In this document: piece after piece, positions 1-15,472 of the stretch
How the letters are laid out: every line of letters begins with the position of its first letter
How positions within the stretch are numbered: the first letter of the stretch is position 1
IMG/VR virus record: IMGVR_UViG_2703718837_000003
Coordinates: 1-15,472 of that record
Length of the DNA: 15,472 bases
Source of the DNA: a virus
Lineage: Duplodnaviria; Heunggongvirae; Uroviricota; Caudoviricetes
Reading direction: 5' to 3' (one strand)
Notes under the pieces: generated by a model
Database searches by the model: none
Told to the model about the DNA's origin: nothing
The model's input: the letters and a program-made list of their open reading frames with translations, nothing else
Made by a program: the position numbers and the translations under genes

Positions 1-2
1 AA

Positions 3-101
3 GGAAACATAAAGAAAAAGTCATGGCTGGATAACAAAGAATTATTACAAACAGCGATATCAGTTCTTAAAGACAACAAAAATTTAAATGGTAAAATGTA
101 A
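3..101 (+). CDS. 3' end of a hypothetical ORF entering from the left window edge (C-terminus ...SWLDNKELLQTAISVLKDNKNLNGKM)
   Basis: Open frame from position 3 to TAA at 99-101 with no start in the window. It sits where a ydfK/ynaE-like gene lies upstream of pin in Qin/Rac-type prophages, but identity is not confirmed. Confidence 0.25.
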   Translation, partial: GNIKKKSWLDNKELLQTAISVLKDNKNLNGKM

Positions 102-419
102 TATAATAAACTTACTTTTTTATCATTTTTCCACTTTAACAACATTTTGCTCCACTTTTCCACGACCAAACAACTTGAAATCTGGTTAAAATAACACGCA
201 ACACTATTCTTCTTCCTTGAGTCCGCCCGGAACTCGAAAAACAAACCGAGTTAAGGCCATTTTTCACAAAATCGATTTTGGGTCTCACCAAAATTACGGG
301 GTTGCATACGCATTCGTTTATTTTCGAACGTGTACATACAAATATGTACAAAAATAATCAAAATTATTTTCTGAGATGCATTATGATATGTACACCAATT
401 TCGTATAGAAGATCTCACT

Positions 420-1010
420 ATGTCTCGAATTTATGCTTACTGTCGGGTATCAACTCTGGAACAGACAACCAAAAATCAACGTCGGGAAATCGAAAGTGCA
501 GGTTTTAACATCAAATCTCAGCAAATAATTGAAGAACAAATTAGCGGCTCAGCAGCAACCAGTGAGCGTCCTGGTTTTAACCAGTTGCTTGATCGACTGA
601 AAAGAGGTGATGCATTGATTGTCACAAAACTGGATCGCCTCGGTTGTAATCCAATGGATATCAGTAAAACGGTGGAACAACTGACCAAAGCAGGTATCAA
701 AGTGCATTGCTTAGCATTGGGGGGCGTTGACCTGACCAGTCCACCTGGAAAAATGATGATGCAAGTAATTTCAGCAGTCGCTGAATTTGAGCGAGACCTT
801 TTACTTGAGCGTACTCATTCAGGGATATTAAGAGCACGGGGCGCAGGAAAGCGATTTGGTCGCCCACCTGTGTTAAATGATGAACAAATACAGAGGGTAC
901 TAGAGCAAATTAAGTCAGGTATAAATATAAGTGACATTGCCCAAGAATTCAAAACCTCGCGGCAAACCATTTTAAGAGCTAAAGCAAAAAATCAGACACC
1001 TGATATATAA
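420..1010 (+). CDS. pinQ: Serine recombinase, Pin/Gin/Hin-family DNA invertase
   Basis: 196-aa [18 protein letters not shown]... with the resolvase/invertase N-terminal catalytic serine motif (YxRVST) and a C-terminal helix-turn-helix. Q versus R suffix is inferred from Qin-like synteny (cspI, cspB, cspF, hok). Confidence 0.9.
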
Positions 1011-1107
1011 AAATAATCTCGGTGTGAGATTCCTTACGTTTTCCAAGCCCCCCTTCCTAGCCTTAAATGGAAAGATACTTCTAATTATAGAATTTATATA
1101 TCTTACC

Positions 1108-1683
1108 CTACGGTAGGGCTGGCCATTCAATATCCGGTGCAGTTGATGTATCAACACGGTTCAGCAACACCCGATACTTTTTCCAGGCTTCCAGCAACAA
1201 GGTTTCTTCCTCCGTTGCGATCTCCAGATCCACAGCATCCTGAAGCGGCGCTATATGCTCACTGGCTACCTGCATCAGGCTGTTTTTTGTTTCTTCCGCC
1301 TCCCGGATCCGGAACAGTTTTTCTGCTTCCGTATCCTTCACCCAGGCTGTGCCGTTCCACTTCTGAAACTCCCCTTCCGGGGATAACCAGGTGACATTTT
1401 CCGGTAATGAGCCGAGTTCAGAAATAAATAACGCGTCGCCGGAAGCCACGTCATAAACCGTTTTACCCCGATGATCTTCAACGAGATGCCACGATGACTC
1501 ATCACTGTTGAAAACAGCCACGAAACCAGCCGGAATATCTGGCGGTGCAATATAGGTACTGTTTGCAGGCAGACCTGTATGAGGTGGAATATATGCGTCA
1601 CCGTCACCAATAAATTCATTAGTTCCGGACAACAGATTATAAATTTTTATGGTCCGTGCTTGTTCACTCATTCTGAATGCCAT
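1108..1683 (-). CDS. tfaQ: Tail fibre assembly protein Tfa (lambda tfa family)
   Basis: The C-terminal 191 aa of the long minus-strand ORF, starting [18 protein letters not shown]...[10 protein letters not shown], is near-identical to remembered lambda Tfa. ATG is at 1681-1683 (minus strand) and the stop at 1108-1110. Confidence 0.85.
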
Positions 1684-4600
1684 TATGCAAGCCTCACAAT
1701 ATAATGCGATGTTTTTGACGGTGTTTTCCGCGTTACCAGCAGCGTTAACGGTGATGGTGTGTCCATGTGAGCCAATCGCAACCGAGTGCGTATGCGCACC
1801 AATACCTACAGTATGTGCATGTGCGCCAGAACTTGCTGCAGTACCAGACAGCGAGTGGGTATGAGCACCTGCTGACTGTGTCTGAATACGTTGATAATAC
1901 GATCTACTGGAAGAAGTCCCCGGGCTTACTTGATACTGTGAATCCTGGACATAAGTGAACCCACCGCCATCATAAAATGCTAACGCAGAACCGCCGCCTC
2001 CTGGCCAACGAATACCATTACCGTGAGTATGAGCACCGGCAGACCCCGTAGAGCCACTCAGACTGTGCGTATGCGCCCCGGTGTTATTCGTGGATTTAGT
2101 GCCGTAATCAAACGACGATGTGGTTTTCGTCCCCAAATCCGTACTGGATGCGCTGGCGCTGTGGGTATGCGATTTAATGCCATCCTGTTCCTGAGACAAT
2201 ACGGCACGACCACTGGCGGGCTTGCCCTTAATCGTCCAGCCACGCATATCAGGGATCACGCCTGACGGATAAGCGGCTGCAAGTTTCGGGTAGGCAGATT
2301 TGTCAAAAGTCTGCCCCTGCATCAGGGCATAACCAGACGGAACGGTATCTGATGGCCACGGGATTGGTGCGCCGACTGGGTAGCTTTCTGGTGGAGGATT
2401 TTTCGAGGTATAAACTTCTGCCCAGTCTTCCTCAAAACCATAGCCATCTCTTGAGGAACGGTAGAACAGACCACCATTTCTGTAATGCGCCTTCATCTGC
2501 AGGGTCCGGCAACTTCCGACTCCGGTATAGAAGTTAACCAGAATATAGCTGTCGCCAGAGCGGGTGACATTGTAAGCGCCTGATTCGGCATTCCAGGGAA
2601 CGCCACCATCCGCATCGGCATATGTATCCGTTGCCCTTCTGGCAAAAGCAGCCACATGCGCGGCGGTTAAAGTAATATCTTTGGAACCATCAAACTCAAC
2701 ACCAGAAACCAGTCTTGGCGTTTGCAGCTTTGTTGCTGTTAATGCATTACCGTTCAGACTTGCGGACAGTTTGGTTCCAATAACCAGCTCGCCGGTTGCG
2801 TTATCAATAGCAAACGGTCTTAATGTATTCCAGCCACCATAAACATCACCTTGATTGGTAAGCAGCAGGTAAGTTTTAGCGCCATCATTACGCCATAATG
2901 CACCATACTCCCCACCTATCATTCGAATCTGATTACCACCACGCGCTACAATTTCGTCTGTGGCAAAAAGTTTTTTGCACGACAAGTTATCGTTAACGAT
3001 TAACGAATGAGACTCATAAAAACCACGCCCACTCTTAAAATCAAGGATAACGTCCGCCGCGATACATTCAGTCGCTGGATTTGTTGCCCCAAACTTATAG
3101 GTCGTATCATTAACAACGAGATCAGCACCAGGTGCGGATATTGACAGGCCATCTTCGATAAACGCAAAAACAGGGAAAGCAGCGCCATCAACATAGAACA
3201 CAGAGCGCAAATCATCGCCCTTATTACTCATCATTATTGAGTGGATGGCTCGTTCATTGTTTTGATATTGCCAGAACATTCCATAAGCATAACGCCCCCT
3301 GTCAGTCCAGCCACCAGGCATAACAAATCCGTTAAACTCGCAGTTATTCATCGGATCGCCTGCGATTCGCGTTGCCGTGGTGATAATGACCCTTGATGCC
3401 AGTTCGCTTACTGAGCCAGCAGAACGCATAACAACAACAGGGTAATATTTTCCAGATGTTGCACCTGCAGGAGCGTTAACCCGCACATAACGCATACCAC
3501 GCTTATCAGCAAAGTCTGTTTTACTGACCGCGTTAATGTTGTTCAGGAAGCGTCCCTTATCGGGTATATCAGCGCCGTTCTGGTTTTTCTGCAGACGTTT
3601 CTCTGCATTGTCATAGGCTGATTTTACTGCCTTTGGCGTTGCCGCCAGCGTTTCAGACGTACTGTTGGTCGCACTGCTGAGCTGTACTATCCCCTTTTTC
3701 GTCGTACTTGCATCCTCAAGCGCCACGGCGGATGCAATATCCTCTGCCCGTTTAGCTGCTGTCTCGGCGCGCGTTGCCGCGGATTCCGCCGTACTTTTGC
3801 TCTGAGCTGCCGCCGTCGCACTGCCAGCTGCCTCTGTCGCCTTCGTGGATGCCGTCGTGGCGCTGCTCTTCGCTGCTGACGCCTGTCTGGTCGCCTCATC
3901 TTTTGAAGCAGACGCCGATGATGCCGATGACGCCGCCGAACTGGCTGACGATGCGGCAGCCGTTTTTGAGGATTCTGCGCTGGTTTCCGACGCTTTCGCG
4001 TTCGTTTCGGATGTCTTCGCTGCGGAAGCAGAACTCGCTGCTGCGCTGGCCTGTTCAGTGGCTTCGCCAGCCTTCGTTGTGGCTGTTGAAGCAGACGATG
4101 CGGCACTTTCTGCCGACTTTCCGGCAGCGGTGGCACTGGCTGAGGCCTGCCCGGCACTTGTTGACGCGGCGCTGGCAGATGATGCAGCCGCTGTTTTTGA
4201 GTCTGCTGCTGCGGAGGCACTCTGTTCCGCTGCCGTCTCAGAAGACCTGGCGTTCGTCTCGGACGTTTTTGCCGCCTTCGCGGAATTTCCTGCCGCCGTT
4301 GCCGAGGAAGCTGCGCTACTGGCGCTCGAGGATGCGTTCGTTTCTGATGATTTCGCTGCCTCTTTTGAGGCCGCCGCATCCCGGGCTGAGGTGGCAGCTT
4401 CTGACGCTTTCGTGGTCGCGGTGGATGCAGAAGTGGCTGCTGATTGTTGTGATGCTGCGGCATTCGTTTCTGACTTTTTCGCCGCACCGGCACTGGTGGC
4501 CGCCGCGCTTTTTGAGGACTCTGCAGCGGCAGCACTTTTTTCCGCTTCAGTGGCCTTTGTTGATGCCGTTCCTGCGCTGGAAGACGCTGACTGATCCGGT

Positions 4601-5403
4601 TCATTACGGTAGCCGGTCATGGCATCCATAGCTGGCTGAAAATATTCACCGCAGTGCGGACATGGCCAGTACCAGCGGCGGCGGTCACCTCGATTGTAAA
4701 GGGAAAGAATACCAGTCGTCGGTGGCGCTTCATGAGGCGACTTACGTCGCCATTTGCTGTCGCAGATGTCACGTCCCGGCGAGCTCTCCACCAGAGTCAT
4801 CCCGGCGGACATAAATGTGGTGGTACGTTTTGAGGCCAGGGAGAAACCATCACCCTCGCTGTCGATATTCTCCGGAAAACGGTCGTAATCGGTTAAGGCG
4901 ACAAACCGGTAATCCGACGACGACATAATGTTGACCGAGGGCCAACCAATTTTAAGGAACGAGCCATCCCTGAACGTCTTATCATGGACATTATTGTCGT
5001 TACGACGTGGACTCATTCTTTTCTTTACCGCCGCACTGCTTCTGAACGTTCTGTCGAGGCGCTTTTTAGAATGCTCGCGGGCCTTATCTTCGGTCATCTG
5101 CACAACGAGCATGTCCGAAGGATCGCAAACGATGGTATAGACAATCCATCCATCGATCAGACCAATGGTCTTCCCTGTTCGCGCAGGACCAACAAAAATC
5201 ACCGCATCGTATTCACGCGATGCCAGGCAGTTCATGGGCTCAATGATGTAGGGTGTCAGTTCAGGATCCCATGGCACCGAGTTACCAGCCCCCTTGGGAA
5301 CACGCATGAATTTTTTAACAGCCTCCGAAATCGGCATGCGACGTGGTGGGGAAAATCCTGCCGATATGTCCCTTCCCAAATTTCGGGCTGATGAAAAACC
5401 CAT
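1684..5403 (-). CDS. Composite ORF: N-terminal ~270 aa of a lambda A-type large terminase fused in frame to a side tail fibre protein (StfR/StfQ-like) lacking its N-terminus
   Basis: The first ~270 aa carry a Walker-A-like VGPARTGKT and a CPHCGEY zinc-finger-like motif, as in lambda gpA. From ~aa 271 the sequence is Ser/Ala-rich repeats ([28 protein letters not shown]...) and the C-terminal domain (GAPIPWPSD..., GAHTHSLSG..., [21 protein letters not shown]) matches remembered lambda/K-12 Stf. A GGAGGA Shine-Dalgarno precedes the ATG at 5401-5403 and overlaps the stop of the upstream small-terminase gene. No stop separates this from tfa. Confidence 0.8.
3750..4595 (-). repeat. GC-rich low-complexity Ser/Ala/Thr-rich coding repeat inside the tail fibre gene
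   Basis: Reiterated motifs ([23 protein letters not shown]) in the Stf frame. The region lacks stop codons in several frames, producing the overlapping track ORFs 3687-4604(-), 3774-4631(+) and 3845-4594(+). Confidence 0.7.
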
Positions 5404-5411
5404 TATTCCTC

Positions 5412-5939
5412 CTAGAGACTCTCTCCTTCCTCATCAGGAATTAATTCAGCAGCACAAGCCTCGTAGGATTTTTCCTGAAGAGTGTATCGCAGGTCATCAA
5501 TGGCCTGCTGTACAACGCCGACGGCCTGAGGAGTCAGAGCGCAATCGCGTTCAAGAACATCCGGAATTGTCTCCAGAACCTGGACGACAGCCTTTCTCAT
5601 GGACGAATAGACGATGACTACTTCATCAACTGGGATGAGTTTTCGCTGCTCCTTTTCCAGCTTGATCCTTTCATTTTCAGACTGGTACCAGTCCTTTCTC
5701 TCTTTCGGCTCCATACGGGATGGATCATGAACAGAGTCTGCTGCCTCATGCTTCACACTAAACAGGGCGGGCCCGACATGCTGCAGGGCGTAAACGGGGT
5801 TCCCCCTGACAGTCGCAGCCACAGGAGTGTTGGCCGCGAGGAGCCGTTTTTTTACTGTGTCCCGGTGAAGCCCAAAGGCCTCGGCGATTTTAAAAACACT
5901 CCAGTAATAAGCATCACCGATCCCGCTCACATTTGACAT
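5412..5939 (-). CDS. Terminase small subunit (Nu1/NohA-like DNA-packaging protein)
   Basis: ~175-aa ORF immediately downstream of the cos-like site and immediately upstream of, and coupled to, the terminase large-subunit start. Preferred start is the second ATG (MSNVSGIGD...) with GGAG 7 nt upstream. Assignment is by position and architecture; the sequence is not a close lambda Nu1 match. Confidence 0.6.
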
Positions 5940-6114
5940 AAGCAACTCCATCTGGCAGGTGAAAATCAGGTTTATTTATATATTTCAATTAATTGCAAAC
6001 TGGTCTAATGACAGGAAGAAAAAAATATTGTACAGGTGAAAAGAGAAATAACTTTTAATTATCAATAAATTACCAAACATGCTGCCGCCGCCATGGAAAT
6101 GCAAAAACTAGCCT

Positions 6115-6140
6115 TTTTCCGCGACGCTCCCGCCCCGTGG
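6115..6140. other. cosN-like cohesive-end site
   Basis: The minus-strand reading ACGGGGCGGGAGCGTCGCGGAAAAAGG resembles the remembered lambda cos junction ...ACGGGGCGGCGACCTCGCGGGTTTTCG. It lies ~180 bp upstream of the small-terminase start, as in lambda. Confidence 0.5.
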
Positions 6141-6315
6141 CAGGGGCCCCCACCGGGAGGACCCGACAGCCTGACAGCCGTGACGAGCATCTGATACAGC
6201 GCTTTACATAATGGCATAGGAATAATTCAGAAGGACATCACAGCATGCCCACACAAATTAGTGTGAGTGTCCTGTTTCTTTCTACGCACAGGACTGACGA
6301 GCATGAGGGGAAAAT

Positions 6316-6483
6316 ATGCGAACCATAAATGCCTCATCTTCAGCAATGCAGCCGGCATTCGAACAGGACGATATTGTAAATTCACCTAATTACGAGGACA
6401 TTGCAGTAGTTGAATTGCAGCTCTGTATTAGCATGACAGTGACAGAATGCGACATTGACTCTGTCACAGGTGAAATAGTTTGA
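6316..6483 (+). CDS. Hypothetical small protein (55 aa)
   Basis: ATG at 6316 preceded by GAGGGG 5 nt upstream, stop TGA at 6481-6483. Acidic product MRTINASSSAMQPAFEQDDIV..., below the ORF-track length cutoff, no recognised homologue. Confidence 0.3.
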   Translation: MRTINASSSAMQPAFEQDDIVNSPNYEDIAVVELQLCISMTVTECDIDSVTGEIV

Positions 6484-6503
6484 ATGATTAGCAGTTATGG
6501 TGC

Positions 6504-6710
6504 TCAGTCAACCACCAGGGAATAATCCTTCGAATTCTTATCGTGCTTCACCAACGCTGCCTCAATTGCCCTGAATGCTTCCAGAGACACCTGATGTTCT
6601 ATACATGCAATTACAACATCCGGGTAACTCATAGAAATGGTGCTATTAAGCATATTTTTTACACGAATCAGATCCAACGAGAGTTCATCAGCAGATTGTT
6701 CTTTATTCAT
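6504..6710 (-). CDS. Hypothetical small protein (68 aa)
   Basis: Track [23 protein letters not shown]... with GGAG 7 nt upstream of the ATG. Convergent with the 55-aa ORF; may correspond to a ynfO-type Qin cargo gene but this is not confirmed. Confidence 0.45.
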
Positions 6711-7010
6711 TTTGTCGCTCCATGCGTTTGCTCGTCATCTAGCGGTTAAAATATTACTTCAAATCTTTCTACATAAAAGAGGAAAAGTATGAAAGTTTGA
6801 GTACATCGACCTTACATACATCTGTCGGTTGCATATCCCTCCTGGATGCCAGCAAGGCTCAACTTTGTTACGCAATCAACACTATTCATTAAAAACAGGC
6901 TTAATATTTGACATAAATCATCAACAAAACACAAAGAGGTCAGACCAGATTGAAACAATAAACACGATAATGCAAACTACGCGCCATCGTATCACATGGA
7001 AGGTTTACCA

Positions 7011-7421
7011 ATGGCTCAGGCTGCCATTTTTAAAGAAATATTCGATCAAGTGCGTAAAGATTTAAACTGTGAATTATTTTATTCTGAGCTAAAACGTCAC
7101 AATGTCTCACTTTATATTTACTATTTAGCCACAGATAATATTCACATTGTGTTAGAAAACGACAACATAGTGTTAGTAAAAGGACTCAAAAAGGTTGTAA
7201 ATGTTAAATTCTCCAGAAACAAACATCTTATAGAGACCTCCTATAATAAGTTGAAATCAAAAGAAATCACATTTCAACAATACAGGGAAAATCTTGCTAA
7301 AGCAGGAGTTTTCCGATGGGTTACAAATATCCAGGAACACCAAAGATATTACTATGCCTTTGATAACTCATTACTATTTACTGAAAGCATCCAGAAAACT
7401 ACACAGATCTTACCACGCTAA
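7011..7421 (+). CDS. ydfO: DUF1398-family protein YdfO
   Basis: [32 protein letters not shown]... matches remembered K-12 YdfO. Start chosen at the second ATG (7011), which has GGAAGG 7 nt upstream; the track ORF starts 15 nt earlier. Confidence 0.8.
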
Positions 7422-7521
7422 ACCATAACGTCCGGCTTCTCTCACTCCTGAGCCGGACTGCATTGGTTTAATAAAAACCATCAACAATTGTGATTTAGAT
7501 ATTCGGAACCATTCAAATATA

Positions 7522-7550
7522 ACAAAACCCCGTAAAAACGAGGTTTATGG
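7522..7550 (-). terminator. Candidate rho-independent terminator downstream of gnsB
   Basis: On the minus strand, a 7-bp stem (one G-U pair) with a short loop followed by TTTTGTT. Confidence 0.35.
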
Positions 7551-7572
7551 ATAAATTTTATTATTGAATACA

Positions 7573-7746
7573 TCAGATTAAATTAATCTTGACATCATAG
7601 CTTTCAAGACCCGTCATTTTTTCCCGTGCGGTAAACTGAATACTGGTAACTTCCTTCCCGGTCTTTTTCTTAAGTTCAATAATTTTTTTTGTTATATATT
7701 CAGAAATATCTGCTTCTGCTTTTGTTTTTAAGTCTTCAATATTCAT
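7573..7746 (-). CDS. gnsB: GnsB (Gns family, 57 aa)
   Basis: Hand translation of the minus strand gives MNIEDLKTKAEADISEYITKKIIELKKKTGKEVTSIQFTAREKMTGLESYDVKINLI, matching the Gns family. Absent from the ORF track because it is under 60 aa. Confidence 0.8.
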   Translation of the reverse strand: MNIEDLKTKAEADISEYITKKIIELKKKTGKEVTSIQFTAREKMTGLESYDVKINLI

Positions 7747-7917
7747 CATTTCCTCTTTTAGTCTGTTATGACTTTCCAGTTACACAGTAAGTCGATTATA
7801 TGGTGCAAACGTGTAAAAGATAAGATGAAACATCGCAATAATCAACATACGATAGTCTAAATTTTACACAAACAGACAAAGAGAATTTTCCTGAATTATC
7901 AATGCAATAGCATCAAA

Positions 7918-8148
7918 TCAACTCAAGAGCCTTATTGCTGCTTCCAGAATTTCTTCTGAAGTAACATGTCGATCCGCGGCTACATAAATGACTTTATGAT
8001 CTCCGGTCAGAGATGGAAACCCTGCGGCCATTACAGTAAGGTGTGTTTTTTCGCCATTTGGATATTCACGCATGATGGTGTTAACTCCAGTCATCGCTGG
8101 CACTACCACTGCTGGTTCAGAGTTAAAAAAAACTATGATTTTTTTCAT
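7918..8148 (-). CDS. ynfN: Small cold-shock-associated protein YnfN
   Basis: The C-terminal 51 aa (MREYPNGEKTHLTVMAAGFPSLTGDHKVIYVAADRHVTSEEILEAAIRLLS) match remembered YnfN. The frame is open upstream to 8190, so the start is uncertain (8073, 8148 or 8190). Confidence 0.6.
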   Translation of the reverse strand: MKKIIVFFNSEPAVVVPAMTGVNTIMREYPNGEKTHLTVMAAGFPSLTGDHKVIYVAADRHVTSEEILEAAIRLLS

Positions 8149-8189
8149 GATGTTACCGTAGTATGTGAGTATCCATCGAATAGACACCA

Positions 8190-8217
8190 AGCAAAAAAGC
8201 TCCCGAAGGAGCCTTCA
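8190..8217 (-). terminator. Rho-independent terminator downstream of cspI
   Basis: Minus-strand GC stem (GCTCC-TTCG-GGAGC) followed by TTTTTT. Confidence 0.55.
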
Positions 8218-8419
8218 TTTTCACTTTTTTAAATCCAACGACAGACGGCTGGCATTTAAGTATTGTGAAATATTATCAAATGTAATCATCATTGATTTAC
8301 AAAAGATACATTTTGCCCCGAAAGGATTCATGTCAGAAACATCAAAAGATGATGTTCTATACTGGGAACCATGACAACACGGGCATCTAAAGTGAATATG
8401 GTTTGTAATATTGTCTACC

Positions 8420-8632
8420 TCAAAGCGCCACTACATGAACAGCGGCAGGACCTTTAGGTCCGTTCTCAATACCAAATTCAACTTCCTGATTCTCAGTTAA
8501 TGTTTTGAAATCGTTGCTCTGAATTGCTGAGAAATGGACAAACACATCTTTGCTGCCATCTTTCGGCGTGATGAAACCAAAACCTTTTTCAGGGTTAAAC
8601 CATTTCACTAAACCAGTCATTTTGTTAGACAT
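8420..8632 (-). CDS. cspI: Cold-shock protein CspI
   Basis: The 70-aa product [70 protein letters not shown] is a full cold-shock domain matching CspI. AAGG lies ~7 nt upstream of the ATG, as in csp genes. Confidence 0.95.
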
Positions 8633-8994
8633 AATTATTACCTTTTGAAGAAATTAGCCCTTGGGCAGAATGGTCCGAAAAAAAATATCAGAGAGAAAAA
8701 CCAACAAGGAAATCTCAAGAGGTACAAATAATAAAATTATAACAATGACTGCTTCAGATAAATTTGTAACAAACCAGAACACCATTAACGCATGATTAAC
8801 CACCCATAGCAAGGATTACTTTTGTAAAGAAAAACACAGCAATGAAAGAATAGCTTTATTTATTAATAAAACGTGTCATTCTGATTAAGACCTTTTATCT
8901 TACCCTTAAGATTTCAGGAATTTTGGCTCATGGAAGAGTCCTTTTTATTTAAATTTTACATTCCGCGATGTAAATGTTCCGATTTAATATTACC

Positions 8995-10018
<1,024 letters not shown>

Positions 10019-10022
<4 letters not shown>

Positions 10023-10330
10023 ATATATTTATGATGAGGACGCTCGTGCTTATTGGCAGGATTTTCAATCTTAAAGGAGTACTGATGCTGCAGATAAGAC
10101 TCAACTTTTTCTGACAATTTTTCTGCTACTTCCAGGAAGACTTGCCGGACGCTCCTTCTGGCTGCTGCCTCATAAAACTCCAGCGCAGCTCCTTCAACAC
10201 GGTCCATGGCGACATCCAAGCCAAAAATTTCACCGTCAAAGCGTTCTTTGTCCTGTAAGGCTACAGTTACCGTAACTTTATTCTCAAAATTACGGACTCC
10301 TTTCACAACCAGTTCATAGTCTTGAGTCAT
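10019..10330 (-). CDS. ydfR: DUF1327-family protein YdfR, between holin and endolysin
   Basis: 103-aa ORF MTQDYELVVKGVRNFENKVTVTVALQDK... with GAGGAG 9 nt upstream of the ATG. Confidence 0.75.
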
Positions 10331-10334
10331 TGGA

Positions 10335-10550
10335 TTACTCTCCTCTCGCAGCCTTACGCCTGTCTTCTTTAATCTTGAAATAAAGATTTGTCAGATACGT
10401 CAGCAGGCCAAAAACCAGGCTACCCAGCACACCGATTGCAGCCCACTGTGACGGAGTTACTTTATCGAGTAACTGCAATGCCCAGAAACCAGCATTACCC
10501 GCCGATGTGCCATAGGCAACACCTGTTGTTAACTTATCCATTGATTTCAT
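10335..10550 (-). CDS. essQ: Class II holin / pinholin (phage 21 S-type)
   Basis: 71 aa from [28 protein letters not shown]... with the dual-start motif (Met1, Met4) and two transmembrane segments, matching S21. The track ORF extends 25 codons upstream; the start is placed at the MKSM Met with GAGGA just upstream. Confidence 0.85.
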
Positions 10551-10769
10551 ATCCTCACCCCGATGTACACGGATGGTGCAATATGTTTGAAAAGATCGGA
10601 GTCTACGGGGTAGTTTTGACAGCACACGTTGTTCTCAACGGCGCTAAAGAAACATACACATTAAAAATGTGAGTAATTATTTTGAAAGAAAGTCATATAT
10701 AAAATAATAATACGAGAAATGTTTTCATATTTAGTGTACTGTATACGGCCATTTATACAGGAAAAGCCT

Positions 10770-10940
10770 ATGTCAGAACGTAAAGACTCAAAATCACGCC
10801 GTAATTATCTCGTTAAATGTTCCTGCCCAAACTGCACCCAAGAGTCAGAACACAGTTTTTCAAGAGTACAAAAAGGTGCCCTTTTGATCTGCCCTCATTG
10901 CAACAAAGTATTCCAGACAAATCTTAAAGCTGTAGCCTGA
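10770..10940 (+). CDS. Zinc-ribbon microprotein (56 aa, CxxC...CxxC), possibly YnfU
   Basis: MSERKDSKSRRNYLVKCSCPNCTQESEHSFSRVQKGALLICPHCNKVFQTNLKAVA with two CxxC pairs and AGGA ~8 nt upstream of the ATG. Length and location fit a Qin zinc-binding microprotein recalled as YnfU, but the name is not certain. Confidence 0.5.
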   Translation: MSERKDSKSRRNYLVKCSCPNCTQESEHSFSRVQKGALLICPHCNKVFQTNLKAVA

Positions 10941-10994
10941 TTGATTTTATTAGTAACAAGTATTTTTATATTTTAATAATATATTTAAAGCAGA

Positions 10995-11022
10995 TAATAA
11001 AAAACCCGCCTGAGCGGGTTTG
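10995..11022 (-). terminator. Rho-independent terminator downstream of cspB
   Basis: Stem CCCGC-CTGA-GCGGG; on the minus strand it is followed by TTTTTTATT. Confidence 0.6.
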
Positions 11023-11302
11023 AGATTGTGGTGCTTTTTGTGGGAGTCATCCACTTACGCACTTTGTTTTGCCATGCCAGCAGTTAGCTTCTGCTGTAAA
11101 ACTATTCATGCAGCAAACCTGCACTTCACCACAATGGTTAGCATACTTTTCCTGATTAAGATTTTGCCAAATATGCTGGCCATTGTTTCATGTATTGGAC
11201 CTCCTTAATTTTTATTAAAGAAATCCAATATTCACTACTCTGTCCGTATCTCTACTCAGGCATCAGCCTTCTTCGTTATCGTATACAGACGAGCGATGAA
11301 TT

Positions 11303-11518
11303 TTAATCAGTAATGATGACATTTGCTGCTGCAGGACCTTTAGCACCACTCTCTATAGAGAAGGTAACCTTTTGACCTTCAAATAAGGTTCGATAATTAT
11401 CATTCTGAATCGCAGAAAAATGCACAAACACATCTTTACTACCATCAACAGGAGAAATAAAGCCGAAACCTTTATCAGCGTTAAACCATTTTACTAAACC
11501 AGTCATTTTATTTGACAT
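11303..11518 (-). CDS. cspB: Cold-shock protein CspB
   Basis: The 71-aa product [71 protein letters not shown] matches CspB. Confidence 0.95.
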
Positions 11519-11828
11519 TCTACATTCCTTAACTTGAGCCTTTCGGCATAAATGGTTTGCATAACAGAAACGACTTCGTACTTAATTGGAGAGACTCAAA
11601 GAAGGAATAAGTGAATAACACCTGAAATGAGAACTGCTTTAGTAAACTACTTCGTATATCGTCTGTTCTTCAAACCGACGCAGTCATTAACTCATAGTTG
11701 AACATATGAAGCAATGTTTATTTTAGACATCCAGCCACCTTCAATCCTATCAAAAAAGTAGTTTTCTCCAGGAACGTGTGTATGGTGCACCAGGTTATCA
11801 GTATTAAGGAGTTTTTCTGTCCCCTAAA

Positions 11829-12019
11829 ATGACAGGAATTGTCAAAAACTTTGACTACAAAAGCAGCAAAGGTCTTATATTCCCATCCGATGGCGTATCG
11901 ATGCCCAGCTTCACGTTTCAGCTCTCAATCTTCGAGATGCAGAAGAAATTACCACAGGATTACGCGTGGAATTTTGCCGGATAAATGGTTCGCGTGGACC
12001 TTCAACTGCCAATGTTTAT
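11829..12019 (+). pseudogene. cspF: cspF-like cold-shock-domain gene, apparently frameshifted
   Basis: The N-terminal half of the cold-shock domain ([22 protein letters not shown]) is in one frame from ATG 11829. The C-terminal half ([42 protein letters not shown]) is in the -1 frame, consistent with a 1-bp deletion near 11893. The C-terminal frame then has no stop until 12355. Confidence 0.5.
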
Positions 12020-12061
12020 CCCGGGATGAGATTCAATATCTCTATTGCCCCATTTAAAGCA

Positions 12062-12100
12062 CAAAAACCCGCTTATAAGCGGGTTTTCTACTTTTTTCTA
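12062..12100. terminator. Bidirectional rho-independent terminator (candidate tR' for the late promoter and terminator for cspF)
   Basis: Stem AAACCCGC-TTATAA-GCGGGTTT flanked by an A-run on the left and a T-run on the right, so it can terminate either strand. Confidence 0.6.
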
Positions 12101-12133
12101 AACGTCGGATACACAAAGCCCATCGTTGAGAAA

Positions 12134-12162
12134 ATCTTATCCATGTTTTTTGAAAAATGCAA
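12134..12162 (-). promoter_or_regulatory. Candidate sigma-70 late promoter (PR'-like) immediately downstream of the Q gene
   Basis: Minus-strand TTGCAT, 17-nt spacer, TAAGAT, ~30 bp downstream of the Q stop and ~40-65 bp upstream of the bidirectional terminator, as for lambdoid PR'/tR'. Confidence 0.35.
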
Positions 12163-12193
12163 ACATCATGTCGCCATCTTCAGCAAAAATCAT

Positions 12194-12946
12194 TTATCTC
12201 GTCACCTTCCTCAATTGCGCTTCCGCGTATGCTTCTTCCTGCCAGCACTTTGTTACCAGTTTACCAATGACGTCCGCATACCCCTTATACCACTGATAAT
12301 CGGTCAGGTCTGGTACCAGCTTCTGGACATGACGTCGTGCCAGCGTGGTCGGTAAACGACTAAACCGGTTTCCATTACAACGCCCACAAATCTTATATAC
12401 CGGTACGCCATGAAACCGGGTTCTTTTTTCATCCAGAACAATCCCTTTACCCTTACACCCTCTGCACGCTGTGCTGACTTCGCCCTTACCATGGCAATGC
12501 TGACATAGTTCCTTCACCCATTCTTCCTTGATTACAGATTCCCCGCGTCTGTAGTGTTTCACCACTTCGCGCAATACATTATAAAATCCCGTACCTGAAC
12601 AATGCTCACAGCGAGCCTTACTTGCCGCAGACCTGGAGTAATCAGCAAAGGCAAAATTCACGAGGTAAGGAATAATCTGTAACCGGATTTCTTCACTCAA
12701 TTTGTTCAATGTCGGGTTATCCAGTGCCATCGCGTAATTTAGCAGGCCTTCAATCGCAAACTGAGCGTCCTGAACACCAACTTTTGCCAGAAATAAGGCC
12801 AACCCAAGTGGTGCTTTCGACTGCACCATCCCCTGCGCTGCCATTACATCCGTAATTGTTAAACAACCGGTGCCTGTCGCTGGAGCGTCATCGCTCAATT
12901 TTGGAGATTTTGGGGAGTAATATTTTGGTAAGGCTTCAAGGTTCAT
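12194..12946 (-). CDS. quuQ: Late-gene antiterminator Q (phage-82-type)
   Basis: 250 aa from [10 protein letters not shown]... with multiple CxxC zinc-binding motifs, matching the remembered QuuQ/82-type Q family. GGAG lies 8 nt upstream of this ATG; the track ORF starts 10 codons earlier. Confidence 0.85.
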
Positions 12947-12959
12947 GCTCGTTCTCCAC

Positions 12960-14009
12960 TTACGCCAGTACGCCAATTGCCAGTGCGCGATCGATAAAAC
13001 GAAATATCAGCTCCAGTTGGGAGCCATACTTCTCTTCAAATGCCACTGTATCCGTATGCAGCTCGTTGTGATGCTTTCTGCACAAAGGCAACACAAAGAG
13101 ATCATGTGCTTTTGTTCCCATTCCGCCCTGCCCGTGACCAATCAGATGATGCGGATCGTCGGCTGGCATACCGCAGCAAGCACACGGCTGTGTCTTAACC
13201 CAACGTGTGTATTTCTCCTTAACCCAGCGGCGACGTTTAGGCAGCTTCATGAAAGATTCCGGAGACTCTGGATCAACGGTGATGCTTACCACCGTCTTTT
13301 CCTGTGGTGGTTTTTGTTGCTGGTGGGCGTAAGGCAACGGTGCAAGATTTTTTGTGCGTTGTTTCAATATGCTGGTGGCGGTCTGCTCTCCCGGTACGAT
13401 GTCGCTCTCGCGGTACACCGAGCAGATTTTTTCCGCTGGTAATCCCAGCGAACGACGTAATACCGCTTCCGGTAGCGCGTCCGCCACCTGATTGCGGACC
13501 GCCCACCAGGATAATTCAGCCAGAGATAATTCACGCTCCTGCGTACCGCTTATTGCGTGACGGATGACGTCAATCACCCATGCTGTCAGATTTTGTTGAG
13601 CAAGCAGCTCCAGTGATTCCGATGTCTGGTCACGTAGCTGGTTGTCGCAGTGCCAGCACAACACCATTGCGCCGGTACCATAACGGTGAATGACGGTTTC
13701 GCTGTGATGATAATCGCCGTGTGGCCACTGGCAGGATTTAATATGGCGCAACAGCCAGTCAGACAATGCACCAGCACCACCAGCAGCACGAATCACCCGT
13801 GCGTTACTGAAAAACGGCAGCAATGTTTTGTCTTCCACCAGCGGCTGGCGAACGGCAGGAACGACCCCGGACGGCAGATTACGCATGCTTTTCGGTTCCG
13901 GTTCCACCAGCACTCGAGGATTATGAAATATCTGTATGGATTCACGGCCCGGCTTAAGGACCACCAGCCCAAGCTCAGGCACCAGAACAGGTCTAAGTAA
14001 TACCCGCAC
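12960..14009 (-). CDS. ydfU: DUF968-family protein YdfU with a C-terminal HNH-like motif
   Basis: The C-terminus carries CACCG...DDPHHL...KAHD...CRKHHNELH. The probable start is the GTG at 14007-14009 with GGAGG 3 nt upstream, giving 349 aa; the track ORF starts at an upstream GTG (14048). Confidence 0.75.
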   Translation of the reverse strand: MRVLLRPVLVPELGLVVLKPGRESIQIFHNPRVLVEPEPKSMRNLPSGVVPAVRQPLVEDKTLLPFFSNARVIRAAGGAGALSDWLLRHIKSCQWPHGDYHHSETVIHRYGTGAMVLCWHCDNQLRDQTSESLELLAQQNLTAWVIDVIRHAISGTQERELSLAELSWWAVRNQVADALPEAVLRRSLGLPAEKICSVYRESDIVPGEQTATSILKQRTKNLAPLPYAHQQQKPPQEKTVVSITVDPESPESFMKLPKRRRWVKEKYTRWVKTQPCACCGMPADDPHHLIGHGQGGMGTKAHDLFVLPLCRKHHNELHTDTVAFEEKYGSQLELIFRFIDRALAIGVLA

Positions 14010-14010
14010 G

Positions 14011-14289
14011 TTACCTCCAGATCCGTTGCTGGAAAGTGCGGGACGCACGTGGTGGGCGTTCGGAATAAGGCAGCCTGACAGAGATTATCCAGTGCCGATA
14101 GTCGAGACTGAGAGCTTTCTTAACCTCGAACCCGCGCCTGCGGTAAGAATGAATCAGCCATTCGGCCTGTTCTGCAGTGCATGGAGGGTGCTGGAACCAT
14201 TCAGACTTGAATGCGTGAGAATACCGCCCGTGCGTGCAGGCAAGAACGGGCGAATTATCAGAATTGTAATATTTTACGTTGCGTGCCAT
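14011..14289 (-). CDS. Hypothetical protein (92 aa), translationally coupled to ydfU
   Basis: ATG with GGAG 8 nt upstream. Its TAA stop is 1 nt from the ydfU GTG start, and its last codons contain the ydfU Shine-Dalgarno. No recognised homologue. Confidence 0.5.
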   Translation of the reverse strand: MARNVKYYNSDNSPVLACTHGRYSHAFKSEWFQHPPCTAEQAEWLIHSYRRRGFEVKKALSLDYRHWIISVRLPYSERPPRASRTFQQRIWR

Positions 14290-14355
14290 CGGTTTTCTCC
14301 GGTGGCACGGTGTTACTCAGCGGGAGTTCAGCCCCGCGCAAGATTGTAGATGAGT

Positions 14356-14607
14356 TTATTCTTCTGCAAAAGCTGAAAAGCCTGCTTTTATTCCGATCTC
14401 TTTCAGTGCCTGTAATGAAGTGACAAACTCACCTTCGCGCAAGATAAATCCGTCTGTCACTCGACCATCCACAAAATTAATTAACGCAGCCCCATTCTTT
14501 CGCAAACACATAATGCGGTAATGACTAACAATATTTCCATTTTCAACGCACACAGCATAGAGGCCATCTTCACAAAAAATTTTACGCAGTTCTTCGATGT
14601 TCATCAT
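14356..14607 (-). CDS. rem: Small prophage protein Rem (83 aa)
   Basis: 83-aa ORF MMNIEELRKIFCEDGLYAVC... with GGAAGGA upstream. Called Rem from its length and position between ydfU and hok in Qin; the sequence itself is not remembered, so this is a synteny call. Confidence 0.55.
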   Translation of the reverse strand: MMNIEELRKIFCEDGLYAVCVENGNIVSHYRIMCLRKNGAALINFVDGRVTDGFILREGEFVTSLQALKEIGIKAGFSAFAEE

Positions 14608-14722
14608 CAGAATCCTTCCGGATAATTAGCTCTCCCCTTTAAGGGACCATCCCTCTTATCCCTGCGCGCTACTTAAGTATTTTTGATTCTATTCCGGCAC
14701 CGTCCAGAACTTCAAACGCGTT

Positions 14723-14757
14723 GAAAATAAAAACAAAAACCCGCCGAAGCGGGTTAA
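14723..14757 (-). terminator. Rho-independent terminator downstream of hok
   Basis: Stem ACCCGC-CGAA-GCGGGT; on the minus strand it is followed by a long T-rich run. Confidence 0.6.
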
Positions 14758-14823
14758 GTGCGGGTGCGTTGAAGATGCCTGCCACATCAGAGGTGGCGAG
14801 GGATTTCTCCCTCGCCGGGTCTC

Positions 14824-14979
14824 TTACTCCTCAGGTTCGTAAGCTGTGAAGACAGCGACCTCCGTCTGGCCGGTTCGGATTCGTACCTCGCAGAGGTCTT
14901 TCCTCGTTACCAGTGCCGTCACTATGACGGTTAAACAGATGACGATCAGGGCGATTAACATCGCCTTTTGCTGCTTCAT
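14824..14979 (-). CDS. hokD: Hok-family membrane toxin (type I toxin)
   Basis: MKQQKAMLIALIVICLTVIVTALVTRKDLCEVRIRTGQTEVAVFTAYEPEE (51 aa) matches the Hok/Gef family. A perfect 9-bp hairpin (GGCGAGGGA-TTTC-TCCCTCGCC, 14794-14816) follows the stop. Confidence 0.85.
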   Translation of the reverse strand: MKQQKAMLIALIVICLTVIVTALVTRKDLCEVRIRTGQTEVAVFTAYEPEE

Positions 14980-15036
14980 AGCCTGCTTCTCCTTGCCTTT
15001 CGGCACGTAAGAGGCTAACCTACATGTGTCTAGCAT
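14824..15036 (-). CDS. Mok-like overlapping reading frame (in-frame N-terminal extension of hok)
   Basis: The 70-aa frame MLDTCRLASYVPKGKEKQAMKQQ... resembles chromosomal Mok proteins (MokC-like N-terminus, from memory). Confidence 0.45.
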   Translation of the reverse strand: MLDTCRLASYVPKGKEKQAMKQQKAMLIALIVICLTVIVTALVTRKDLCEVRIRTGQTEVAVFTAYEPEE

Positions 15037-15456
15037 GAAATTGGCCTCAGATTAATGTTAAGCGTCTTGCAGGACGCGTAATGTTAACTGGGGCTTTTCT
15101 CTATCTGCCTTTGGTGTTCATGCCCGAGGCAGATAGCCTCAAGCACCCACAGCCATTCTACTTAACTACCGTTACCTCGCCAATATGAAATCAGTCAGAA
15201 AGGCGATCCATAAGAACAATAGCAAGACAATAAATCGCCATTACAGCCGTAATAGCCAGCGCACATTTGAGAACCAGCACCACAACCTCCTGTATTGGAC
15301 GTAGACCAGTCCTGATGAATATGAGGCTGTCTCGTCAGTGATTCAATACAACTATTGGGTATAGTTTCTCTGATTTTTTCTGTGGAAATGGGGCACAACC
15401 ACTAGTCACCACCAGCACTTCTTTTAATACGCAAAGTCCGACACAAGCTAACCTTC

Positions 15457-15472
15457 TAGACTGGCCCCCTGA
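15457..15472 (+). mobile_element. Left terminal inverted repeat of IS2, truncated by the window edge
   Basis: The last 16 bp, TAGACTGGCCCCCTGA, match the remembered IS2 left end (TAGACTGGCCCCCTGAATCTCC...). Only 16 bp are visible. Confidence 0.5.

Follow-up and report, generated by a model that had tools for sequence, protein, structure and literature searches.

Does a small open reading frame (ORF) that runs directly into the start of a phage nuclease gene encode a dedicated partner of that nuclease, or a component of more general use? The question is raised by the minus strand of the virus record IMGVR_UViG_2703718837_000003 (Caudoviricetes; positions 1 to 15,472, the whole stretch of DNA analysed, hereafter the window), a Qin-type cryptic lambdoid prophage of Escherichia, in which a 92-aa ORF (14011..14289, -) stops immediately ahead of ydfU (12960..14009, -), the gene of the 349-aa protein YdfU. 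As detailed below, the 92-aa ORF is, on comparative grounds, a genuine protein-coding gene, and its coupling to the following gene is conserved; the small protein is probably a general accessory of a nin-like delayed-early operon and not a dedicated YdfU subunit.

The evidence that the 92-aa ORF is a real gene comes from its pattern of variation. A Nei-Gojobori comparison of 162 related loci, taken from viral contigs carrying the ORF with ydfU downstream and reducing to 75 distinct nucleotide sequences, yields a ratio of nonsynonymous to synonymous substitution rates (dN/dS) of 0.21 overall, indicative of purifying selection; by segment, the ratio is 0.60 (residues 1-26), 0.11 (residues 27-75) and 0.08 (residues 76-92). 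Insertions and deletions among relatives stay in frame, including 2-aa changes in the N-terminal extension. The initial annotation had made its proposal hinge on conservation of the frame in related prophages, and the frame is indeed kept across these loci. In addition, a word-indexed search retrieved homologs in 129 clusters, nearly all of them from Escherichia and 92 or 90 aa long, and residues 27-92 match the entire profile of PHROG 1212, a family annotated as of unknown function (E 1.7e-35, profile positions 1-66 of 66). A Shine-Dalgarno (SD)-like GGAG, read from the sequence, lies 7 nt ahead of the ATG (14297..14300, -). K-12 MG1655 carries an intact copy that differs by a single amino acid (locus L254, 2307-2585, -), and genomes annotated by RefSeq PGAP label the protein hypothetical (WP_012304870.1).

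The family to which the small protein belongs is compact and restricted in distribution. Searched exhaustively with a profile, 1.84 billion representatives yield only 72 clusters at 50% identity, mostly of 66 aa, and tblastn locates homologs in phages of Salmonella (Gifsy-2), Klebsiella, Citrobacter, Cronobacter, Hafnia, Edwardsiella, Yersinia (PY54) and Erwinia; the 66-aa protein of Gifsy-2 is also on record as Gifsy-1 STM2620.1n, and a fold search of BFVD adds N15 Orf QD1 (Foldseek, 32% identity, E 1.6e-3). All family hits are enterobacterial. The small protein has no match in Pfam, NCBIfam or the PADLOC defence models; its structural search disclosed no relatives outside the family, and a profile search of PDB sequences returned no match. 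The label "toxin to Rem" appears in two records of one phage series only, and was disregarded.

The AlphaFold2 model of the small protein, built from a 43-sequence alignment, comprises three segments: (i) a weakly constrained N-terminal 26-residue extension found only in the Escherichia version (14212..14289, -), absent from the 66-aa relatives and predicted to be disordered, with a predicted local distance difference test (pLDDT) score of about 50; (ii) a conserved core, aa 27-75 (14065..14211, -), predicted to fold as a β-α-β-β mini-domain, with pLDDT above 90 at residues 28-75; and (iii) a basic C-terminal tail, aa 76-92 (SERPPRASRTFQQRIWR; 14014..14064, -), likewise predicted to be disordered. 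The tail is the best-conserved part of the protein, near-invariant across 18 Escherichia sequences, its low dN/dS being accompanied by synonymous variation, and it carries a net charge of +4 at an isoelectric point (pI) of 12. The basic character extends to the family (median pI 9.7; tail charge +3 to +4), of which at least 90% keeps Trp91. The profile and structure predictions that the initial annotation had called for give a PHROG 1212 protein with a compact core on one side and, as described below, an HNH fold for YdfU on the other.

The minus strand across the junction with ydfU reads ...CAG CAA CGG ATC TGG AGG TAA c GTG CGG GTA... (14007..14018, -). The small ORF had been described as stopping 1 nt before the ydfU GTG, with the ydfU SD in its final codons, and both observations hold at the level of coordinates: the TAA occupies 14013-14011, the single spacer nucleotide 14010 and the GTG 14009-14007, and the GGAGG (14018-14014) lies within the Trp91-Arg92 codons, 4 nt ahead of the GTG, as in the layout typical of coupled pairs, where the SD sits inside the upstream ORF. 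The GTG gives the 349-aa protein annotated in RefSeq and aligns with the ATG start (MRALL...) of an ortholog that is 51% identical. The sequence TGGAGG-TAA-(c/t)-GTG is unchanged in 162 of 162 related Escherichia loci. Within it, Arg92 is encoded by AGG in all 162, whereas the codon of Arg89 varies synonymously among CGG, CGC, CGT and CGA, as expected from a dual coding and SD constraint. Judged by this conservation, the junction is more than chance. Tight junctions as such are common in these nin-like regions, about 24 of 35 by hand count, or some two thirds, being of 10 nt or less or overlapping. Public collections also hold read-through fusions of neighbouring genes, namely the small protein with YdfU (438 aa, P0123) and, among the database proteins P0124-P0126 and P0184, YdfU with the Q antiterminator (607 aa) and a RusA domain with a DUF968 protein (447 aa); these are probably frameshifts or small deletions at tight junctions.

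Genomic contexts of the small gene, sampled from single-protein scans, exact-protein look-ups and annotated phage records, disclose a variety of downstream partners. In Escherichia, 162 of the 163 loci with the small gene have ydfU immediately downstream, and the small gene precedes ydfU both in Qin and in a Klebsiella-type element, where the two genes share a TGATG overlap and their products are 51% (YdfU) and 41% (small protein) identical to those of the window. Other family members are followed by (i) RusA and then YdfU, in Citrobacter koseri, Atlantibacter and phage Chris1; (ii) RusA alone, in three viral contigs; (iii) NinG, in Gifsy-2 and GF-2; (iv) YbcO, in mEp237, phiES15 and a Klebsiella phage; (v) PerC-like genes, in some contexts; (vi) RNase T plus a Lar gene, in N15-like elements; and (vii) a Dcm methylase gene, in one Erwinia phage. 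At least seven different gene families thus follow the small gene. Conversely, a Salmonella ydfU is preceded by a different gene, of 171 aa, and lacks a family member in its vicinity.

The geometry of the junction is shared by most of these contexts. In 16 of 18 distinct family contexts the next start lies at -4 to +2 nt, and likewise in 16 of 18 the recurrent arrangement is a penultimate Trp codon, one or more purine-rich codons, the stop, 1-2 nt and the start, or else a TGATG/ATGA overlap; the Trp and purine-rich codons double as the SD of the next gene, whatever that gene (junctions of L002, L004 and L246-L268). The uncoupled contexts are PY54, with a 48-nt gap, and the short contig L248, and Trp91 is retained in both. 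Upstream, the small gene is often preceded by a DUF1367 gene (L002, L004, L249, L250, L268) or a weakly NinB-like gene (L247, L263), an HHpred match between DUF1367 and lambda NinB being recorded in one phage record, so that by annotation it often appears to be flanked by a gene resembling a recombination mediator on one side and a junction nuclease gene on the other. Because family members are coupled to several unlike genes, the coupling is not evidence for a partnership specific to YdfU; it is a real and conserved property of the 3' end of the small gene and of the operon. The two-gene module proposed by the initial annotation accordingly finds support in its co-translational layout, with its conserved stop and start, but not as a dedicated pair. 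As a separate observation, the Klebsiella-type element (L246, 375-2170) encodes a phage RecA homolog and a protein with a LexA DNA-binding domain just upstream of the small gene and YdfU pair, the RecA homolog being of note given the RecA dependence of related nucleases.

YdfU starts with a region that has no known relatives, continues with a flexible linker and ends in an HNH domain of the zinc-finger type. Pfam assigns residues 160-346 to DUF968 (6.8e-77, 257.8 bits against a cut-off of 27.8) and phrog_96 'HNH endonuclease' is matched at 1e-172, with two further Pfam families just or well below threshold, HNHc_6 (25.8 versus 26.6) and RecA_dep_nuc (17.6 versus 26.9); a single-sequence search of PDB sequences gave no match. 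The AlphaFold2 model, for which 81 orthologs were used, has a mean pLDDT of 78, with residues 198-202, 226-259 and 297-299 below 50, of which 226-259 form the disordered linker. The HNH, or His-Me finger, domain spans aa 265-349 (12963..13217, -), with a motif core at aa 276-318 that reads C276-x2-C279, H287-H288, D303, C310-x2-H313-H314 and H318. Conservation was followed in the same 81 orthologs, from at least 11 genera, in which C276, C279, H287, H288, D303, C310, H314 and H318 are invariant; these residues line up with the HH...DN...CxxCH..LH motif of EcoKMcrA, as they do with those mutated in the phage nuclease Gp16. The predicted domain shows the ββα-metal fold, and a catalytic His, a structural Asn/Asp, a metal-binding His and a four-ligand Cys/His zinc site are all present. 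The HNH-like motif initially read in YdfU is thereby substantiated by Pfam, by the predicted fold and by the invariant catalytic and zinc residues.

The HNH nature of DUF968 and YdfU is already published: Gram-positive DUF968 proteins were described as Orf-HNH fusions (PMC4118853), and DUF968 and YdfU were assigned, like YbcO, to the His-Me finger superfamily (PMC5714182). A published activity assay for YdfU or YbcO was not found in the literature. Besides the C-terminal domain, the N-terminal region displays a Cys/His ββα element at aa 93-126 (13632..13733, -), composed of C93-x3-H97, H101-H102, C118-x-H120-C121 and N123, with predicted strands at 105-110 and 113-118 and a helix at 119-125; C93, H101, E104, C118 and C121 are invariant. 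Possibly this element represents a further zinc module of the HNH type, in degenerate form; its comparison with the Gp16 HNH core gives a marginal BLAST high-scoring segment pair (E 0.085). An internal HNH duplication is treated as unproven, since hhalign sets residues 80-154 against 265-344 with a score that 54 of 200 column shuffles also reach.

Transcription of the region is known from K-12, where the terminator upstream of ydfU is among the strongest Rho-dependent terminators (PMC9160355). According to the supplement of that study, ydfU is derepressed when Rho is impaired and rem, the next gene upstream of the small ORF, is not (PMC9160355), which sets the terminator within the ydfU-rem interval that holds the small ORF (~14010-14360). 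A Rho-dependent terminator fits a nin-like region that needs antitermination, and translation of the small ORF could possibly influence the access of Rho. The C-over-G skew over the small ORF is mild (0.06-0.14), and a clear Rho utilization (rut) signature was not seen there. A σ70-like match, TTTGCA-16-TACAAT (14343..14370, -; 9 of 12 positions, a consensus match only), lies between rem and the 92-aa gene; the region holds five sites of the same quality against 2.3 expected.

Taken together, the findings most probably describe an ordinary segment of a lambdoid delayed-early operon with tightly packed genes, in which the small gene is co-translated with whichever nuclease gene follows. Ribosomes that end the small gene would re-initiate on ydfU, and the small protein and YdfU would be produced together in lytic growth; in the lysogen, the Rho-dependent terminator upstream of ydfU would keep ydfU silent. 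YdfU would nick or cut DNA in recombination or replication intermediates, and its cleavage may be stimulated by RecA, by analogy with Ref of phage P1 and Gp16 of PhiNM1; RecA-stimulated nicking is, on this analogy, the best available hypothesis for YdfU. The small basic protein would serve the recombination/nuclease block of the nin region as a general accessory, its basic tail most likely contacting nucleic acid or some host factor common to these reactions. Since RusA, NinG, YbcO and other genes are coupled to its relatives in the same manner, it is not taken for a subunit dedicated to YdfU. This assignment to a nin-like delayed-early operon with a general accessory is the reading that we favour with some confidence, although several points weigh against it: re-initiation is deduced from the anatomy of the junction alone, the 4-nt distance from SD to start is below the optimum, the RecA dependence ascribed to YdfU is borrowed from proteins that share only an HNH core of ~60-80 residues, no NinB/Orf-like domain was detected in YdfU, and the linkage of the small gene to ydfU in Escherichia and in the Klebsiella-type phage also fits a specific partnership.

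The last of these points leads to the view that the two genes form a dedicated two-component module, the small protein being a specific subunit, a chaperone or an antitoxin-like or immunity-like inhibitor of YdfU that coupling keeps in fixed proportion. The nearly exclusive pairing in Escherichia and its recurrence in the Klebsiella-type element speak for it, as does the order of a small gene before a potentially toxic nuclease gene, which is the usual layout of type II toxin-antitoxin systems; the related nuclease Gp16 does inhibit growth when over-expressed (PMC12817073). Yet the co-occurrence in Escherichia reflects close relatives sharing one module, and the family is equally coupled to RusA, NinG, YbcO, PerC-like, RNase T/Lar and Dcm genes. 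RusA intervenes between the small gene and ydfU in Citrobacter and Atlantibacter, and the Salmonella ydfU manages with its 171-aa neighbour. Looked at as a toxin-antitoxin or nuclease-immunity system, the pair shows neither specific co-occurrence of both families nor, for the small protein, a match to a known defence or toxin-antitoxin family in PADLOC, Pfam or NCBIfam, and we regard such a module as unlikely. A different emphasis makes the small ORF mainly a translated leader, which controls Rho access and feeds ribosomes to the poor GTG start, the peptide being secondary, and which would tune or gate how far the nuclease gene that follows and Q are expressed. The position of the Rho-dependent terminator in the interval of the small ORF (PMC9160355), the GTG with its short SD spacing and the constancy of the coupling geometry whatever gene follows are what such a leader would predict. 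The strong purifying selection on core and tail amid many synonymous changes (dN/dS 0.08-0.11), the confident compact fold and the conservation of Trp91 even in the uncoupled PY54 and L248 speak against it, and leader and protein roles are not mutually exclusive; a predominantly regulatory role seems improbable.

Two further explanations were weighed. The first would make the small protein a universal accessory for interchangeable structure-specific nucleases of the nin region (YdfU, NinG/Rap, YbcO, RusA and Ref-like), targeting or licensing the co-translated one through its basic Trp-containing tail, which would bind branched or RecA-coated DNA, or a host factor common to them such as RecA or SSB; separately, YdfU may have two HNH-like zinc modules and could thereby cut both strands. 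This proposal is speculative and we give it a low probability. The second, implied by the annotation of K-12 MG1655, holds that only ydfU is real and that the 92-aa ORF is a frame left open by chance between genes. The 346-nt ydfU-rem interval of NC_000913.3 is indeed without any gene record, and a 137-aa antisense ORF overlaps the 92-aa ORF. Constraint in this very frame, in-frame indels, a PHROG match, a confident fold, an SD of its own and homologs at 35-50% identity in phages of Salmonella, Klebsiella, Yersinia, Erwinia, Edwardsiella and Hafnia leave it hardly any credibility, and the comparative data already refute it.

The wider setting agrees with this gene order and adds several observations of its own. 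On the minus strand, hokD (14824-15036, -) is followed by rem, an 83-aa gene of unknown function (14356..14607, -; phrog_340) that lies 66 nt upstream of the 92-aa gene, then by the 92-aa ORF, ydfU and the Q-type antiterminator gene ydfT/quuQ (12194..12946, -; PF03589, 4.5e-54, together with the RefSeq annotation of a homolog), whose ATG at 12946 stands 13 nt past the ydfU stop, and finally by the lysis cassette and cold-shock genes. A hairpin resembling a strong intrinsic terminator (AACCCGCTTCGGCGGGTT followed by a T-run; 14738-14755, -) lies between hokD and rem, that is, upstream of the block formed by rem, the small gene, ydfU and Q. Among complete E. coli genomes, a 1.8-kb test stretch finds its best full-length matches at 97.8% identity, and related DNA is present in 4925 of 5426 genomes. 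Beyond hokD, positions 15040-15472 lack a RelE-sized ORF, where K-12 has relE-relB, and near-identical E. coli genomes carry no annotated feature in the matching stretch. In a single 1431-aa ORF (1108-5403, -), the ATPase domain of a terminase large subunit (residues 40-274) is fused to tail-fibre domains, namely Gp34 trimerisation, Collar and fibre repeat, and to a tail-fibre-assembly domain at the C-terminus; the ORF looks like a cryptic-prophage deletion scar that preserved one open frame. The cspF homolog (11829-12057, +) seems frameshifted, a 51-aa ORF being accompanied by a second ORF (11966-12355) that begins with the continuation of the CspF sequence; in K-12 and strain BL12, cspF encodes 70 aa.

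The practical value of these results is modest and current understanding is not overturned, the pair of small gene and ydfU being fairly ordinary in operons where tight coupling is common. They nonetheless (i) identify a conserved Qin protein-coding gene that has no gene record in K-12 MG1655 and is annotated as hypothetical elsewhere; (ii) connect YdfU, through its motif and predicted fold, with P1 Ref and PhiNM1 Gp16, two RecA-dependent phage nucleases that have been studied by experiment, which provides a testable hypothesis for a y-gene; and (iii) define a small family that always takes the leading position in the nuclease/resolvase slot of lambdoid phages of enterobacteria, whose last codons are the ribosome-binding site of the next gene and which is a candidate general accessory in phage recombination.

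The closest relatives of the YdfU HNH domain are those of P1 Ref, PhiNM1 Gp16 and DLP12 YbcO. Ref is a RecA-dependent HNH nuclease (PMC3973344, PMC4330346) of 186 aa with a basic, disordered N-terminus (PDB code 3PLW), whereas YdfU has 349 aa and a large, unrelated N-terminal region; the score of YdfU against RecA_dep_nuc is sub-threshold, and its putative RecA dependence is a matter of analogy. Gp16, reported in 2026 as a RecA-dependent nickase that inhibits host replication (PMC12817073), was located in its phage record via the published residue numbers, and matches HNHc_6 (PF16784, 4.9e-117) as well as DUF968 above threshold (29.1 bits). It shares with YdfU the motif C-x2-C ... H ... C-R-[EK]-H-H-N-E-x-H, YdfU 273-328 being 39% identical to Gp16 142-200, and both are encoded by early phage genes near recombination genes. 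On the other hand, Gp16 has 223 aa, a NinB/Orf-like N-terminal domain and a host of a different phylum, and no homolog of the 92-aa gene accompanies it. YbcO (DUF1364, PDB code 3G27), compared here together with His-Me finger group 7 (Jablonska et al. 2017), consists of the ~96-aa nuclease domain alone, unlike the 349-aa YdfU.

For the small protein, N15 Orf QD1 and PY54 ORF47 are true homologs, by Foldseek and tblastn, respectively, and are uncharacterised; they differ in belonging to linear-plasmid prophages, in which they lie downstream of Q and beside an RNase T/Lar gene or an unknown ORF. As regards the operon, the position upstream of Q had been proposed as the equivalent of the lambdoid nin region, a correspondence that is supported. 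The lambda nin region (Orf/NinB ... NinF, NinG/Rap, NinH, then Q) likewise lies upstream of Q with tightly packed, overlapping junctions, and relatives of the small gene are flanked by DUF1367 or NinB-like genes on one side and by NinG, YbcO or RusA on the other. The cryptic Qin element differs from lambda in lacking the replication genes that bound the nin region there, and the small protein, which has no Pfam family, shows no link to NinE, NinF or NinH. In Gifsy-2 and GF-2, the small gene stands directly before NinG, the slot that NinF occupies in Erwinia phage vB_EhrS_59 and in lambda itself.

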